This document shows, piece by piece, positions 27,001 through 33,000 of a DNA stretch of 64,000 nucleotides. The stretch's first letter is position 1. Every line of letters starts with the position of its first letter. Position numbers: made by a program. Source of the stretch: Candidatus Calescibacterium sp. (GTDB lineage: Bacteria; Calescibacteriota; Calescibacteriia; Calescibacteriales; Calescibacteriaceae); the NCBI GenBank assembly GCA_032249135.1, contig JAVVGL010000004.1:32001-96000 (forward strand). Direction: 5' to 3'.

Positions 27001-30000
27001 CAGATGCGAAAAATGTAAATGCTGTTATCAAATATATTGATCAAAATACGAACGAAGGAGATTATATTTTTGTTACCCCATGGTTTGCTCCCCCTCTTTA
27101 TGCCCTAACTAACAGAAGAAATCCTACCTATTATGATTCGCTAATTGATCCTATTGTCCTGCCATCAGAGGAAAAGCAGTTAAAAATTTGCGATGATCTT
27201 CTACGAAAGAATACTAAACTTGTGATTCATTATCCTGATTTCGGATATAGTGCAGGACATTTTATGAGCTCTTGTCCAATGTTGCAGAAATGTATAGAGG
27301 ATAACTTTGATTTAGTAGTAAAATACGGAAATTACTGGATATATAAGAGGAGGGAAATAAGAAACATGGAATAAGAGTTAAAGATATATGCAACAGGGCG
27401 AAAAATTATAGTAGTTTGTTTGTCCCTTTTGCGTTTTTTCTCGTCTAATTTTAAATTTCTGCTTTAAAAAATTTTTTCTTTTTGGAAACAAAATTCTGAC
27501 TTATGGTGGTTTTTGCCTTTTTGTTTTTTGCTATAAATCTTACATTAGATGAGGCAGTAAAAATAGCTGTTGAAAATAATCTTTCAGTCTCTTCTCAAAG
27601 ATACTCTCTCAAAGATGTTGAATATACTGCAAAAGCTGCCTGGTCTTATGTGCTTCCAAGATTAGTTGTTGATTCGTCTTACAGAAGAAACCTTGAACTA
27701 CCGGAAGCTCAAATAGGTATGCAAAAAGTAAAAGTAGGAAAGCCAGATCAAACCCAAATTACTCTGTCTTTGGTTCAATCTCTACCTATTGATGGTTCTG
27801 TTTGGTACCTCAAAGAAGCTCAAAAGTATTCTTACGATTCTCAATCATACTCGTTTTTGGCTTTCAAGAACGAAATAATTTTCAGAGTTGTAAATCTTTA
27901 CATTACAATTTCTAAACTTTTGCTCTCTCAAAATATAGCAAAGGAAAATTTAGAGAGGATGAAAAAGCATTATGAGGTCGCTCAAAACCTTTTTTCTGCT
28001 GGACTTATTCCCGAAGTTGATCTCACAAGAATAGAAACATCTTTGTATGAAGCTCAACTTCAACTTAAAAATATAGAAATTCAGCTCCACCAGAACCTGC
28101 AAAATTTTCTTCTGATTTTGGGCAAAGATGATATAGATCCTATTCCTTCTCAATCTATTGATGAACTCATTTTTATTTTTGATCCTTTCGGATTTTTTGA
28201 CTCAATAACCCAAGAAAAGATAGATATAGAAAATTCTCCTGATATATCATCTATAAGATTTAGGGTTTTGCAATTGGATAGACTTTCAAAAGCTCAAAGA
28301 GGACAACTCTTCCCGCAAATATCTTTTGGTTTTTCTCTCATAAACTCTTTCGGTTCTTTTATTGAACAAAGGAATATACCCGTTTTATCTGTTGGAGCAA
28401 ATTTGACTTTTGATTTTGGTGGAACTTACCACAACTACCTTGCAGTAAAGCAAAGAAAAATATCAGTTGAGTTTCAACTTGAAGATTTGAAAAGACAAAA
28501 AATCAAAAGCTTGGAAATGGTTATTAAAGAATATGAACTTGTAAAAAGCAGACTTGAACTCGCTCAAAGCAGACTTGCATCAGCTGAAAAATCCTTGAAA
28601 TCAGCAGAGGAACTTTTCAGATATGGAAAACTAACTTCTGTTGACCTTATGGATTATGAGTTCCAATACGAAAACGCAAAATTTGACATCATATCAGCAA
28701 AAGCTGATTTATTACTCCTTATGTGGAGAACTATTTACTTGACAGGACAGCTAGAGCAGTTTTTCATATCAAAAAATCATGTTGGCAAAAAGTCTAACTA
28801 GCTTTGCCGCAATGAGAACGACCCCATTTTCAGGGCGGCCCTGCAAAGCCATCAGGACCTAACCTCATCGCTACCCCCTCCCACTTCCCTTGCACCATCA
28901 CAGGGCGCAAGGGAGAGAAGTCCCTCATACAGAACCTCCCAAGGAGAGGTATAGCGAAGGCTACCCTCAGAACTCGCCAGAATTTCTGTCCGCTTTCCGG
29001 ACCCCTCACAGGTTCCTTCCTCAGGTTCCCCTGCTTTTGGGTCTCTGGCTCACTCTGAGAGCTTTTATTTGTTTCCATCAAAAATTTTTCCAAAAATTTC
29101 TCCAAAAATTTCTTCTCCTTCTTCAACCTCCTCAAATCCCTCTTTATTCCATTTGCTTTGTATTTGTTTTTTTCTTGATTCAACTTATTTCTCAATTCCT
29201 CCTCCATTTTCCCTAATCTCCATAATGCATATTGAATGTAAATCTGGCTTTTGAGAAGCTTTTTGTAGTTCTCTGGTATTTCTTCCTGAAAACCTAACGC
29301 TTTCCTACCTATAACATATGCTCCTGCTATATCTTTATCTATAAAATACTGCGGACAATATTTCATCATACCTATAACTGATGTGAAAGCTGGATTTACC
29401 TTCACTACCTCTATTCCTTCCTGAATTGCTAAGCTCTCTATCTTTTTCAGTATTCTCCTATAAGAGAAAAATTGTAGGATTTTTCTGAGCTTTGCTTTAC
29501 CATCCCCTCTCTTTCCTTTTGGGAGCTTTCCAATATCCTCAATTGCTATTGCTTTATTTTTTTCTTTTGCAAATTTTATAACCTCGTGAGCTATCAACCA
29601 CTCCTCATATTCTTTCCTATTTCTGCTTTTGTATTTCAAAAGATAAGAAAGATAGATTGATTTGTAGCTTTGCAAATTACCATCAGGAGAAACTTCTGCA
29701 AGAGCAAGATGGAAAGGTCTTGCATTCACATCTATTCCTATTACTCCCTTTGATTTCGTAATTGTTTGAGGGGGAACATCAAGAGAAAATCTGACAAATC
29801 CGTATATTTGACCATCTTTGAGTTTTAGCTCAACAGTGTAAGGGAATTGCTCTCCCGATAAGATTTTTGCCAAAAACAAAGCCCACTTATCTGATTTCCC
29901 ACTCAAATCTCTCTTTACCCTTGCTAATATAAATTTCCTGTTCTTCAAAGCTATTCTTAACAGAAGATTGTTTTTACCATTTTCAGCAGGGATAAATCTG

Positions 30001-33000
30001 AGATTAAGGTTTCCTTTGTGAGTTTTGTGCTTTGCGCCTATGCTTAACAAAGTTCCCTGCCTTTTTTCTTTCCATTTTCTCTTAAGCTCCTTCAATCTTT
30101 TTCCTTGAAGATAATTCTTTTTGAGCTTTTCAAATAGAGTTCTACCACCGAATATAAGCTTTTTTGGATTCTGTCCTCTTGCTTTGCAACTTTGAAAAAT
30201 CTCTCTTGCTTTCTCAACTGCACAATTTACATAATGAGAGTTGAGTTCTGGGAATTTCTGTCTTGTTATTGTGTAAGCTTGCAAAGTGGTAAAACCCTCA
30301 AGAAGTCTCTTGTATGAAAATCTTACAGCAGAAGAGAAACTTCTCATAAGTTTCAGGATTTGTTCTTTCTCTTCCCTATTTACAACGAGTTTGAAACTTG
30401 TAGTTATGAACATATAAATTAAACAAATTGTAATAATTGATTTTGGCTTAAAGCGGAATTTTGTAAAATTTTTGAATTTAGGGAAGAAATTATAATTTCA
30501 GATGATTGCGACAAAGCATTTTTAAATCATAAAATGTGTAAAATCCCTTTTTATGATTGGAGTTTTGATGATAAATAGAGTTCATTTTGTTTTACTTCCT
30601 TTTCTTATCATTTCTTTCGGTCAGCTTACTTCCTGCTCTTCCTCTGCTCCTTCTAAATTAAGTGAAAATTACAAAGTTGTTCAGAGGTTAAATCTTATAA
30701 GAGTTGGAACTTCAAACATCAAATGGGAGCTTTACCTTGGTACAGGCGGGTACCAAAAATTAGAAGAGAAAGTTTTGAGTTCTTTTGAGTTTTCTCCCTC
30801 TGGTATTGAATCTGGTATTGAAAATCAGTTTGTTTCAGCTAAATTAGAGAAAAAAGACGATTTCGCTGTTATTTATGTGAGATCAAAGCTTTACGACTTT
30901 GATTTCAAGCAGGATATTTTACCTTTTATAGAACTTGAATTTCTATGTGGTGATAAAGAAAGATTTTTCGGTTTCGGCTCGTGGGCAGATTATGCCGACG
31001 CAACAGGAAGGAAAAGACTGATATACACACAAGAACAGCATGTTGGAGGAGAAATGACAGATGATGGAAAAATAGTAAATCAGCCATGGCCTTTTGGTGA
31101 ATTACTAACTTATTTTCCTGTTCCATTTTTTGTTTCTTCTCAAAACTATGCATTTTTTGTCACAGGATTTGACCCTATCGTTTTTTCCATATGTGAAGAT
31201 GGGAAAGTATGGAAAGTCAAGGTTTTCAATAATTCCGCCACATTTTTTGTTTTTGGCTGGAAAGAAAAACCCCTTGAAGCAATTAAAAAATTTACCGGAA
31301 TTGTAGGCAGACAAAAAACTCCACCAATATGGGCTTTTGGAAACTGGATAGATGCGATAGGAGGTCAGAAAAAAGTAGAAAATACAGCTCTTTTTTTGAG
31401 AGAAAATAAAATTCCTTCTTCTGCTATATGGACGGAAGATTGGGCAGGTGGTTTCAGGAGAACAGAAGATATATACACAATAGAAGGTTGGGATACAGAA
31501 CCATCTTATGAGCTTTATCCAGATATAAAATCTTTATCATCAAAACTTCACTCATTAGGATTTAGATTTTTGGGGTATTTCCACCATTTTGTCGGAAAAA
31601 ATAAAAAAGCCTTTTCATACTTTCAGGAAAACGAACTTTTGCTAAAAGCAAAAGATGGAAAAACAAGATTTGTTTTCTTTATACCAGAAGCTCAAGATGT
31701 TGGTTTGCTTGACCTTGAAAACCCAAAAACTTGGGAAGCTATGAAATCTATAATGAAAAGTGTGGCAAGTTTGGGCTTTTCCGGATGGATGGCTGACTTT
31801 GGAGAATGGGTAACTCCTGATATGATTTCATTTTCAGGTAAAACAGGTTGGCAACTTCATAACCTTTATCCGTATCTTTGGGCAAAACTCAACAGAGAAT
31901 TTTGGGAAGAGTTTTCTCAATCTGATTTTGTCTTCTTTTCAAGGTCTGGATTTACTGGTTCTTGGGTGTTTTCTCCTGTTGTTTGGCAAGGAGATCAGAA
32001 CACATCTTTTGAAAGACTTGACGGTTTAGGTTCTGTTATACCATTGATTACATCTTTGGGATTTTCAGGGGTTCATAGTGTGGGACCTGACATAGCAGGG
32101 TACACATCGGGGGTTTTGAGTCAAAATTCAGATAAAGAGCTTTATATAAGGTGGACATCTTTGTGCGCCTTTTTGCCAATATTCAGAACTCATCACGGAG
32201 TTACACCAGAAAAAAATTGGAGATTTACAAAAGATGATGAAACTCTTTCTATTTTCAGAAAATATGCTCAAATTCATATAAAACTTGCTCCTTTCTTTTT
32301 CGGCATCGCAAAAGAGGGAGAACAAAAAGGGTATCCAGCGGTAAGACATATATTTTTGGAGTATCCAGATGTTGTTCAGTTCATACCTGAAAAGTTAGAG
32401 GTTATAGAACAAGAGTTTCTGCTTGGAGGAAAGATGTTAGTTGCTCCAATTGTCAGGAGAGGTGAAACAAAGAGAGAAGTTTTCATACCACCGGGAAAAT
32501 GGGTTGATTTTTTCTCTCAAAAAGAATTTGATGGGGAACAAAAAGGAAAATTTTTAGAAGTTGAAATACCTTTGGGAGAGATTTTTGTTCTCGTCAAAAA
32601 AGGCGAGTGCATTGAAATTTTTGACCCGGTTCTAGATACATTAAATCAAACTCAAAATCCTGAAATAATAGGGATAGATGATGTGCAGATAAAGAAAGTT
32701 TGTTTTTGATAAAGAAAATTTTTTGAGTCAGTTTTTTGAACTCAGTTTCTTGATGATTTTTTGAAAATCAGTCTAATCCCTGTTTTTTTCTTTCCTGAAA
32801 AGATATTTTTCTGTTTTTGACATACCAGTTGTAAGTTTGTTCAAGGCAAAGTTCTGGTGTGAATTTTGGGGAAAAACCTAATATTTCTTTTGCTTTTTTT
32901 ATGCTATAATGAGCTCCAGTTAAAGCAAAGGGAATAAGCTCTTGTGGAGTATGAAAAAGTGGAATAAATGGCAATTTCATCGCTAAAATTATTCCTAATT

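Follow-up and report, generated by a model that had tools for sequence, protein, structure and literature searches.

TnpB nucleases carried by transposons with inverted terminal repeats are not new. The portions of two sources available to us (PMC10691335, PMC13565253) cover TnpBs that go with DDE transposases and have inverted terminal repeats around them, solo TnpBs that are moved in trans, and a large clade of TnpBs without a zinc finger. Altae-Tran et al. 2023 (PMC10691335) describe, in that portion, six DDE branches of TnpB, in which the 3' end of the TnpB gene lies at most 250 bp from the transposon end. The ends of solo TnpB elements match those of transposase-bearing elements, and the zinc finger has been lost in some large branches; in one of these, the major clade RIIIr-4, the RuvC-III Asp has also become His. 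In eukaryotes, Fanzor1 offers a parallel, and the 5' duplication of its transposons is read as part of the TAM in the available part of a review (PMC13565253).

The window analysed here is a 64,000-nt stretch (positions 32,001 to 96,000) of contig JAVVGL010000004.1 (C4) from Candidatus Calescibacterium sp., assembly GCA_032249135.1. Coordinates such as 28800–30517 count within the window, position 1 being contig position 32,001. The window holds one more DDE-associated, probably trans-mobilised TnpB of the published type, compared with the six DDE branches by their available description only. A first-pass annotation had called it a multi-copy 1.72-kb element, and its sequence indeed has nine matches in the 51-contig genome: one full copy, on C4; six partial copies at contig ends (C21, C5, C51, C41, C14, and C42; 87–96% identity); and two 40-nt pieces (C37 and C1). 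Every structural claim of that annotation was reproduced, and the majority were extended. The inverted repeats (TIRs) that bound the element, given before as 12–16 bp, measure 12–17 bp and have the core GCTTTGTCGCAA at the left and right ends. One terminal base per end is ambiguous; a terminal T is kept at the two ends in 59 of 60 and 44 of 45 flanks. The miniature derivative reported on C37 is real and extends over 4133–4305, slightly more than the 4136–4305 first given. It is composed of both element ends, about 110 nt of the left and the last ~60 nt of the right. The flank common to the element halves at the ends of C14 and C21, TTGCCATAAA, was seen again. The features of the C4 copy are collected in Table 1.

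Table 1. Features of the C4 element and its flank, in window coordinates.
Feature	Position	Strand	Details
Whole non-autonomous element	28800..30518	minus	1,718–1,719 bp; from copy boundaries and the empty-allele joint 28799->30518
TTTAT motif, TAM-like, in the flank beside the left end	30529..30533	minus	positions -16..-12
Left-end TIR (5' of tnpB)	30501..30517	minus	GCTTTGTCGCAATCATC on the gene strand; same 16–17 nt at one end of C24:2292–3340
tnpB-like ORF, 527 aa, TnpB/Cas12f fold, no zinc ribbon	28830..30413	minus	profile, AF2, Foldseek
RuvC-I Asp228	29730..29732	minus	invariant in 25/25 aligned homologues
RuvC-II Glu292	29538..29540	minus	kept in 90% or more of 25 sequences
RuvC-III Asp361	29331..29333	minus	invariant in the 9 closest sequences
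Structured, abundant omega-like RNA scaffold (~255 nt)	28801..29057	minus	overlaps codons ~453–527; structure, covariation, depth, codon periodicity
Last hairpin (arms 28853–28859 and 28837–28843)	28837..28859	minus	helix 1: 98.6% paired, 3/7 pairs changed on both sides
Hairpin loop GGCUUUG, pseudoknot 5' strand	28844..28850	minus	helix 2: 98.2% paired, 5/7 pairs changed on both sides
Extra linker between scaffold and TIR	28817..28829	minus	~13 extra nt at the right end of the C4 copy; contributes to a small hairpin that is optional; most copies lack it
Right-end TIR (3' of tnpB)	28801..28816	minus	GCTTTGCCGCAATGAG read inward
Outer TIR bases CAAAGCU, pseudoknot 3' strand	28800..28806	minus	pair with the last-hairpin loop

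The ORF had been described as a divergent TnpB with RuvC motifs but neither a zinc ribbon nor a Pfam TnpB match, and the family scores behind that description were reproduced. TIGR01766 is matched at 49.2 bits, over its cut-off of 32; guided_TnpB (NF040570) reaches 52 bits, under a cut-off of 100, and TIGR01765 39.2 bits, under 47.25. In Pfam, DUF2192 is the sole match over cut-off (30.5 vs 21). No CxxC pairs of a C4-type zinc ribbon (TNB domain) lie between RuvC-II and RuvC-III; the TNB profile scores 18.3 bits (cut-off 26.3), with only the first 29 of its 60 positions matching. A split RuvC domain with a D-E-D triad is present. In a 25-sequence alignment, the RuvC-III position is His in most of the more distant homologues. 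Profile searches match Cas12f/TnpB chains, and an AF2 model (pLDDT 83.9, pTM 0.75) has the WED-REC-RuvC fold of solved TnpB/Cas12f structures. The top Foldseek match is AsCas12f (8j3r, E 2.3e-10); ISDra2 TnpB (8exa) follows at E 2.8e-6 and Fanzor2 (9b0l) at E 4.4e-5. Codons 1–440 are under strong purifying selection; codon periodicity is gone in residues 441–475 and weak in 476–527. The nuclease is predicted to be active.

Relatives of the protein adjoin an IS607 transposase (NF033518, 198 bits), and its clade is an IS607-lineage TnpB. In a tree of the 26 of 60 sequences left by a redundancy filter, the TIR-bounded forms group together with an SH-like support of 99, as a single clade that falls within the IS607-like forms. 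Assignment of the element itself to IS200/IS605 or IS607 is ruled out by its TIRs, its 9-bp duplications, and a sole long ORF that scans as TnpB rather than as a recombinase. Relatives of the protein do fit that type, which has a Y1 or serine transposase, asymmetric ends, and no target duplication.

The element C24:2292–3340 is IS5-like, 1049 bp long, and has the same TIRs as the TnpB element, as had been proposed. Its transposase scores 87.7 bits (earlier 86.5) against NF033579, with a cut-off of 140, and 31.3 bits against PF01609 (DDE_Tnp_1), with a cut-off of 23. The ORF is, as suspected, N-terminally short, by about 70 profile positions, with an in-frame stop upstream. The sequence AAAATGAATT stands on both flanks with a 1-nt offset. 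The flank repeat claimed for this copy is there. The target duplication, however, is more accurately taken as 9 bp, with one further terminal base per end that belongs to the element, than as 10 bp. No intact partner transposase is present in the contigs of this genome (87% complete): the C24 copy is N-terminally short and the other matches are fragments. Even fragments were found in only 2 of the 41 genomes searched, that is, this genome and one of its 40 relatives.

TIR sharing between a TnpB element and a DDE IS also occurs in Thermocrinis and Hydrogenobacter, with different TIRs. Genome G001 has a 934-bp IS with a 258-aa DDE ORF (NF033579 58.4 bits, cut-off 140), of which the 17-bp TIR and the 10-bp duplication are both as in 1642-bp TnpB elements. 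Miniature elements of 184–308 bp in this second lineage have the same 17-bp TIR and duplications of about 10 bp, like the IS and the TnpB elements. Homology links the DDE proteins of C24 and G001 (24% identity, E 2e-6). The nearest named relative of the partner IS is ISAae1, of the IS5 family, with a related TIR; the IS903 group, with a 9-bp duplication and terminal GGCTTTGT, presumably resembles it too. As the sole long ORF of a multi-copy element, the TnpB-like protein might be thought to be the transposase itself, its RuvC fold acting as a DDE-like integrase. This reading is scarcely credible, given that canonical DDE ISs with the same TIRs and duplication length occur in two lineages, that miniature elements lacking any ORF also move, and that relatives of the protein serve IS607 elements as accessory genes. 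TnpB is, moreover, dispensable for IS605 transposition.

Target duplications of 9–11 bp are made by both element types, the TnpB element and the DDE IS. Direct repeats of 8–11 nt flank 21 of the 52 two-ended metagenome copies (80 loci examined). The remaining 31 have no duplication, and several have one flank in common with another copy, as might result from recombination that swapped flanks. Among Thermocrinis-type copies, duplications of 9–12 nt, read by eye, were found in 10 of 20. The C4 copy has no duplication in its flanks; against the empty allele, some 4–5 nt are replaced. In metatranscriptome contigs from four runs the empty site is polymorphic: two runs have an empty allele with four extra letters (CATA), and in the other two the contigs cross from flanking sequence into the element's right end. 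The lack of a duplication at C4 and the extra letters had both been raised as objections in the first-pass annotation, and both are borne out. Three observations now speak for a DDE transposase as the mobilising enzyme: the copies with direct repeats, the one TIR and the duplications shared by IS, TnpB elements, and miniatures in the second lineage, and the polymorphic empty site.

The 3' end of the element specifies a structured RNA. Its folding z-score is -5.2, and its GC content is 55–58% vs about 34% for the genome. The conserved fold, previously put at about 215 nt, was found again on a new 40-sequence alignment and now covers ~255 nt. Of its 50 pairs, 17 are changed on both sides, counted on the alignment from which the structure was derived, and most of these double changes mirror one deep split between two lineages. 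Paired cells make up 98.3%, vs 90.8% in shuffles (none of 500 reaching the observed value) and 40–61% in slid controls. The claim that this region is far deeper than the ORF in metatranscriptomes holds as well: summed contig depth in 28813–29096 is 10–60x that of the ORF body in the four runs, although, as cautioned before, it is a poor expression measure, being strandless, taken from contigs only, and summed over related copies and miniature elements, with DNA possible in the libraries. In run X1 this region has a summed depth of 12,000–62,000, whereas the ORF body has ~20–1,700 and the flanks have 22; the profiles of the remaining three runs have the same shape.

A pseudoknot joins the loop of the last hairpin to the 7 terminal nucleotides of the element, with covariation across TIR types. 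When it is included, 98.4% of cells are paired; shuffles give 82.3%, none of 500 matching the observed figure, and slid controls 43–61%. This places the end of the RNA scaffold at the end of the transposon. The TIR-end pseudoknot is a new detail. The omega-RNA reading already suggested for this region is supported by covariation, by abundance, and by the pseudoknot tying the scaffold to the transposon end, the guide role being putative. The RNA is predicted to carry a 3' guide taken from the flanking DNA.

Insertion is oriented with respect to a short motif. For the element type of this window the motif is TTTAW: TT[AT][AT] is found at -15..-12 in 46 of 52 distinct left-end sites, and the mirrored right-end side has it in 3 of 43 (background 0.05). 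For the Thermocrinis type it is GNCA (G.CA) plus 9–12 nt, present at the left end of TnpB elements in 23 of 30 sites and at the right end in 1 of 39. Thermocrinis-type ISs have it at one end in 13 of 19 sites and at the other in 4 of 15, again with a background of 0.05. The tnpB gene always reads away from the motif. In TTTAW-type elements, one unmatched base separates the motif from the duplicated 9-mer. Such oriented insertion at a fixed motif is a second new detail.

The Aquifex genome G060 bears on what reads the motif. The TnpB query found no match of this clade there at E <= 1e-10, and ISAae1 copies have the motif at 3/3 sites (two exact, GTCA+10, and one near match, TTGTA+11). Because the motif flanks this transposase-only IS in a query-negative genome, it looks like the transposase's own target preference; by analogy, it may double as the TAM. 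The fixed distance and orientation to an asymmetric motif in TnpB elements, miniatures, and the ISs of TnpB-holding genomes would also follow if TnpB, as protein or RNP, bound the motif and helped the DDE transposase choose its site in the style of CRISPR-associated transposons. Given the same oriented motif in the query-negative G060, this is very improbable.

The G060 copies and the one-base gap fit another account as well, in which TnpB and its RNA ride along and play no part in homing, the motif is only a transposase preference, and the RNA either regulates the element, e.g., tnpB or transposition, or persists as a stable 3' fragment. Cut-and-paste excision leaves a break anyway, which makes the benefit of a homing nuclease less obvious (PMC13565253, available part). 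We consider this account unlikely, since the RuvC triad is conserved and codons 1–440 are constrained, the covarying pseudoknot ties the scaffold to the exact transposon end as a 3'-guide architecture needs, the right-end scaffold is retained in miniatures, and tnpB invariably points away from the motif.

We favor, as the likely reading, a non-autonomous IS moved in trans by an ISAae1-like DDE transposase and carrying an IS607-lineage TnpB plus an omega-type RNA with putative guide/TAM homing. The proposed sequence of events is as follows. An ISAae1-like (IS5-family) DDE transposase acting on the same 12–17-bp TIRs would move the element in trans. Integration would be of the cut-and-paste type with a 9-bp target duplication, in one orientation, adjoining the short motif: TTTAW-N-[9 bp]. 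The cargo would be the IS607-lineage TnpB, its zinc ribbon lost and its RuvC D-E-D triad kept, and the ~255-nt omega-type RNA, derived from the 3' end of the tnpB transcript. The scaffold is proposed to extend right up to the element's final base, with the outermost 7 nt of the TIR paired to the last-hairpin loop, so that transcription or processing past that base would append a guide consisting of the duplicated target and the right flank. In the empty site, the guide sequence would lie directly 3' of TTTAW; in the occupied site, the same sequence would stand behind the TIR. Because it would adjoin the motif only in the empty site, a TnpB-RNA complex using the motif as TAM would cut only empty alleles, leading to element retention or homing. 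That is, IS605/IS607 logic would be transferred to a duplication-making transposon. We propose only tentatively that the DDE transposase and its passenger TnpB are co-adapted, such that the target motif is the TAM, the TIR is part of the omega-RNA scaffold via the pseudoknot, and the guide is duplication plus flank. If so, a cut-and-paste transposon that makes target duplications would here carry a working homing-nuclease system in a prokaryote.

Several described systems share parts of this arrangement. ISAae1 likewise has a small DDE transposase, related TIRs, and 9–10-bp duplications, but the partner proteins here fall below the curated IS5 cut-offs (58–88 bits vs 140). The clade has members directly downstream of an IS607 serine transposase, as in IS607-family TnpBs, and the same RNA region is conserved, with the ORF overlapping the RNA. 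In contrast, the present element has TIRs and target duplications, no serine recombinase, and a 3' end rebuilt around the TIR, whereas IS607-like relatives end in hairpin-plus-ACCAGG. IS1341-type TnpB-only elements and the IS200/IS605 miniatures with only the omega RNA are similar in being TnpB-only or RNA-only derivatives mobilised in trans. They are mobilised by a Y1 or serine recombinase rather than a DDE transposase; the miniatures here keep the left end and the right-end scaffold. RIIIr-4, as described in the available part of its source, is similar in lacking the C4 zinc finger and in the His found at RuvC-III in more distant homologues; the protein here and its eight closest representatives keep the Asp. 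The DDE branches of Altae-Tran et al. have TnpB inside DDE-transposon inverted terminal repeats and solo elements with matching ends. In this genome and in G001, by contrast, nuclease and transposase occupy different elements, and in G079 they are merely adjacent; the available portion of PMC10691335 has no mention of a pseudoknot with the TIR or of the motif–duplication geometry. TnpB hitch-hiking on a DDE IS is already known in outline; its detail is unusually clear here. Finally, Fanzor1 is a TnpB homologue on duplication-making DDE transposons with TIRs in eukaryotes, whereas the element here is prokaryotic and much smaller, with its motif outside the duplication. If the proposed co-adaptation is true, bacteria would have in this element their own counterpart of Fanzor1, with a thermophilic enzyme that is compact and lacks the zinc finger.

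The 51 contigs of the window organism's genome (2.10 Mb, 87% complete) hold nine matches to the element: the full copy on C4, the contig of the window; six partial copies (C21, C5, C51, C41, C14, and C42; 87–96% identity), each of which runs off a contig end; and two pieces of 40 nt (C37 and C1). Alignment of the copies' ends indicates that the left end (5′ of tnpB) and the right end (3′ of tnpB) share the core GCTTTGTCGCAA in inverted orientation; the left end sequence is GCTTTGTCGCAATCATC. At the right end, most copies have a conserved GC-rich region and, after 0–5 nt, the terminal inverted repeat (TIR); about 13 additional nt separate the two in the C4 copy. 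Right-end length variants are also found in the related loci L128–L207, where the scaffold-to-TIR spacing is 0, 4, or ~17 nt and the ~17-nt form adds a small hairpin (CCC…GGG). These length differences fall immediately inside the TIR and do not represent a guide.

Two further traces are found in the same genome. A lone 17-nt match to a left-end-type TIR, GCTTTGTCGCAATCATT, has no partner end within 2.4 kb and may be a relic end; the 430 nt downstream of it are repeated on C42 at 82% identity. On C1, a hairpin similar to the element's last RNA hairpin (GGTCCTGA…TCAGGACC) is followed by a different tail; this may be where another, related element has its right end.

Coordinates of the element and of related features (G000, genome of the window organism; G001, Thermocrinis genome; G079, another genome; bare coordinates are window positions)
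Feature	Position	Strand	Remarks
TnpB-like element	28800-30517 = G000:C4:60800-62517	minus	full copy
tnpB-like ORF, 527 aa	28830..30413	minus	single long ORF of the element
Structured RNA region, ~255 nt	28801-29057	minus	GC 55-58% vs 34% for the genome
Upstream 432-aa ORF	27503..28801
Lone TIR match	8083-8099 (C4:40083)		17 nt
Hairpin with different tail	G000:C1:203990-204029
DDE IS, window type	G000:C24:2292-3340		1049 bp
DDE IS, Thermocrinis type	G001:C50:35362-36295		934 bp; L120
TnpB element and DDE IS pair, L247	G079:C2, locus 552-2821
TnpB element and DDE IS pair, L248	locus 502-2765

In species-representative genomes, 122 stretches encode a relative of the protein. The 80 kept (38–56% identity) come from Aquificota, Thermus, Meiothermus, thermophilic Firmicutes, Calescibacterium, and a few other bins, and their 3′ ends display two architectures. 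The TIR-bounded relatives are of the window type or of a Thermocrinis/Hydrogenobacter/Calescibacterium type, here the Thermocrinis type (~1642 bp, TIR GAGGCTGTTCTAAAAAT). The relatives without TIRs end in a hairpin followed by GGTNACCAGG, and this type is IS607-like. The gene directly upstream of L087 (Meiothermus luteus) encodes an IS607 transposase (NF033518, 198 bits against a cut-off of 110), and the same transposase C-terminal coding sequence is seen by eye in the upstream alignments of L070, L085, and L086. The aligned left ends of the IS607-like relatives have (G)AGGT/GG in common near the junction, the boundary itself not being fixable. A FastTree was built from 26 sequences kept from 60, after dropping those with internal stops or fewer than 430 aa and thinning near-copies. 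Its seven TIR-bounded sequences group as a single clade (SH-like support 99), itself nested within the IS607-like sequences, a topology consistent with a DDE transposon having captured an IS607-lineage TnpB once.

The likely donor of mobility is found through the TIRs. A scan of the whole window genome with the TIR core identified a 1049-bp insertion sequence (IS) on C24 with the same ends as the TnpB element (GCTTTGTCGCAATGAT and GCCTTGTCGCAATCAT), flanked on both sides by AAAATGAATT with a one-base offset. Its 243-aa open frame scores 87.7 bits against the IS5 model NF033579 (cut-off 140; positions 70–288 of 289) and 31.3 against Pfam DDE_Tnp_1 (cut-off 23). The copy is decayed, as there is an in-frame stop in the upstream continuation of the frame. 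Beyond C24, the partner IS is found only as fragments, elsewhere in the window genome and in 1 of 40 relative genomes searched. In the Thermocrinis genome G001, the 17-nt TIR has 67 matches, versus 2 for the reversed control, and paired ends delimit elements of 1642 bp (TnpB), 934 bp, and 184–308 bp. The 934-bp element, with GCGAAACAGT on both flanks, encodes a 258-aa DDE protein (NF033579, 58 bits) that is 24% identical to the C24 protein (E 2e-6). Thus, a nuclease element and a DDE IS have common ends in two lineages, between which both the TIRs and the proteins have diverged. The isolate genome G005 has about 20 pieces of the Thermocrinis-type IS, many at contig ends. Its nearest annotated relative is ISAae1 of an Aquifex aeolicus plasmid (32% identity), which has the related TIR AGCC(C/T)GTT(T/G)AAAAAATC. 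The first-pass annotation's overall finding, a TnpB-like element that shares the ends of a DDE IS and carries a covarying RNA, is real and well supported.

The two kinds of element also meet physically. The 934-bp IS is inserted in the left end of an IS607-like TnpB element without TIRs, its flanks GGAGGTGCGAAACAGT / GCGAAACAGTTGCTAATTT matching the left end of locus L054. Twice, in L247 and L248, a TnpB element lies 9–11 nt from a degenerate DDE IS, in different relative orientations; the L247 pair has the direct repeat GATCCTTAT on both sides, as if moved as a composite.

Profile scans reproduced the NCBIfam and Pfam scores first reported for the protein; in the precomputed Pfam annotation, almost every close homologue is assigned PF27229. 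Homologues number 1639 by word-index search; the top 120 are all 87–94% identical and mostly 523–527 aa long. When 50%-identity representatives were searched exhaustively, 1623 reached E ≤ 1e-3 and 64 reached E ≤ 1e-30. Aligning 25 sequences reveals D228 and N230 to be invariant and E292 nearly so, with the motif NPAYTSVIG-LKYAP in the zinc ribbon position. The RuvC-III residue is Asp in the query and in the 8 representatives closest to it, and His in most of the more distant homologues. A profile search of solved structures matches Cas12f and TnpB, and an AF2 model (pLDDT 83.9, pTM 0.75; low confidence at 300–315, 452–474, and 518–527) matches AsCas12f, Cas12k, ISDra2 TnpB, and Fanzor2 over its length. 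Compact except for a coiled-coil insert, devoid of a zinc finger, and of thermophile origin, the putative nuclease may interest enzyme engineers.

The 3′ part of the gene overlaps the structured RNA, which folds better than all 200 shuffles (z −5.2); an Rfam scan of 28300-31000 found nothing but a chance miRNA match (E 0.6). From an alignment of 40 sequences (24 window-type, L011, and 15 Thermocrinis-type), RNAalifold derived 50 pairs, 17 with changes on both sides, a count made on the very alignment that yielded the structure and in which most double changes trace to one deep split. Of the cells, 98.3% are paired, versus 90.8% in shuffles (0/500 reach it) and 40–61% in slid controls. An independent event is found within the window type: the hairpin UCCG-GAAAG-CGGA is replaced by GGAG-AAAAG-CUCC in 4 of 24 rows. 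This hairpin falls in the protein's low-confidence linker, across which, despite its variable length, the C-terminal motif (W479 .. LT .. S-LK .. P520 .. G525) stays in frame in the alignment of 25 sequences; therefore, the tail is translated. Codon-position entropy among 47 ORFs agrees in its layout: third positions are 3–10 times more variable than first and second positions in codons 1–440, all three vary equally in codons 441–475, and third positions are only twice as variable in codons 476–527. Thus, the linker is shaped by the RNA and the tail by RNA and protein.

Four hot-spring metatranscriptome runs provide contigs only, with neither RNA starts and ends nor strand, and depth is counted by contig and adds up all copies and miniature elements. 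So counted, depth in run X1 is 12,000–62,000 over 28813-29096, whereas the ORF body has ~20–1,700 and the flanks 22; the other three runs have the same shape. This is consistent with a stable processed RNA. Contigs break at points of divergence between copies, so the apparent drop in depth at the TIR is no evidence of an RNA end.

The end of the RNA scaffold is marked by pairing. The final 7 nt of the element complement the loop of its last hairpin, forming a pseudoknot (loop given first): GGCUUUG with CAAAGCU in the window type, GAGGCUG with CAGCCUC in the Thermocrinis type, GAGGUUG with CAACCUC in L012, and UUGCCUU with AAGGCA in L011. When the terminal region is aligned over 77 columns, pairing in this helix reaches 98.2%, and 5 of its 7 pairs have changed on both sides; the three terminal helices jointly are 98.4% paired, versus 82.3% in shuffles (0/500) and 43–61% in slid controls. 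For the register to suit both lineages, the terminal T of the window type must be counted in the element. The end of the RNA scaffold is therefore the exact transposon end. A guide-adjacent omega RNA hairpin has been suggested to encompass the transposon end and to be modular (PMC10691335).

That terminal T also bears on the target duplication. Among 80 metagenome loci with proteins 78–95% identical, both ends are present in 52, and 21 of these have a flanking direct repeat of 8–11 nt with an offset of at most 2 nt; by our estimate, well under one is expected by chance. Read on the gene strand, a T adjoins the TIR on its outer side at each end of the element (59/60 and 44/45 flank strings); hence, a duplication of 9 bp plus a terminal base carried by the element is the best reading. 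In the remaining 31 loci, several flanks recur with different partners, which suggests exchange between copies. In Hydrogenobacter sp. RSW1, the flanks of L017 and L046 are swapped (L017 right = L046 left and vice versa), as expected from recombination (inversion) between two copies.

No duplication flanks the C4 copy. Contigs from two of the four RNA-library runs join 28799 to 30518 via CATA, at the depth of the flanking gene, and those from the other two cross from flank into element; therefore, the C4 site is polymorphic. The insertion is at the extreme 3′ end of the 432-aa ORF gene, where the element's first two bases complete the stop codon, TAG (28799-28801); without the insertion, as in the empty allele, the frame would extend one more codon (…N-S-stop).

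The sites also carry an oriented motif. In the window type, T-T-T-A/T-T/A lies at −16..−12 beside the left end, one base upstream of the duplicated 9-mer (43, 57, 59, 46+14, and 42+17 of 60 strings by position). With near-identical flanks merged, TT[AT][AT] at −15..−12 is found at 46 of 52 left-end sites, versus 3 of 43 on the mirrored right-end side and a background of 0.05. The copies C4, C21, C5, C41, and C37 fit the motif; the one window-type transposase-only copy, C24, has TTAT shifted by one base. In the Thermocrinis type, G-N-C-A immediately precedes the duplication, at 23/30 left and 1/39 right TnpB ends, and at 13/19 of one end and 4/15 of the other end of the DDE IS (background 0.05).

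The motif could reflect target choice directed by TnpB. In genome G060, three ISAae1 copies are flanked at the same IS end by TGTCA+10, AGTCA+10, and TTGTA+11, and the TnpB query has no match there at E ≤ 1e-10. TnpB-directed choice is thus largely rejected, and the oriented motif is a property of the transposase family. In the empty site, the motif would lie just 5′ of the sequence that read-through of the right end would add to the RNA. The TAM–protospacer arrangement of IS605 and IS607 is the same, and, by analogy, TnpB may read the oriented motif as its target-adjacent motif (TAM).

Our literature search on TnpB with DDE, TIR, or TSD found no paper on this TIR-bounded family. Its setting is familiar. 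PMC10691335 describes six TnpB branches associated with DDE transposases, each of them with inverted terminal repeats, as well as solo TnpBs with matching ends, for which movement in trans is proposed, and RIIIr-4 as a major clade of zinc-finger-less TnpBs; RIIIr-4 also appears in PMC10278001. A 2026 review names ISL2, IS630, and IS1031 as DDE groups associated with TnpB and discusses reasons for the rarity of such associations in prokaryotes (PMC13565253). The family is a natural, well-populated test case for the role of TnpB in transposons with double-strand-break excision and target duplication. Independent insertions whose duplications can be read number in the dozens, each of two lineages has a candidate TAM (TTTAW and GNCA), a covarying TIR pseudoknot sets the RNA scaffold boundary, miniature RNA-only derivatives exist, and the partner transposase family chooses its targets in an unusual, oriented way. 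The element is thus a well-resolved addition to the known DDE-associated TnpBs and nothing categorically new; what it adds to them in testable form is the geometry linking motif, duplication, TIR, and pseudoknot.
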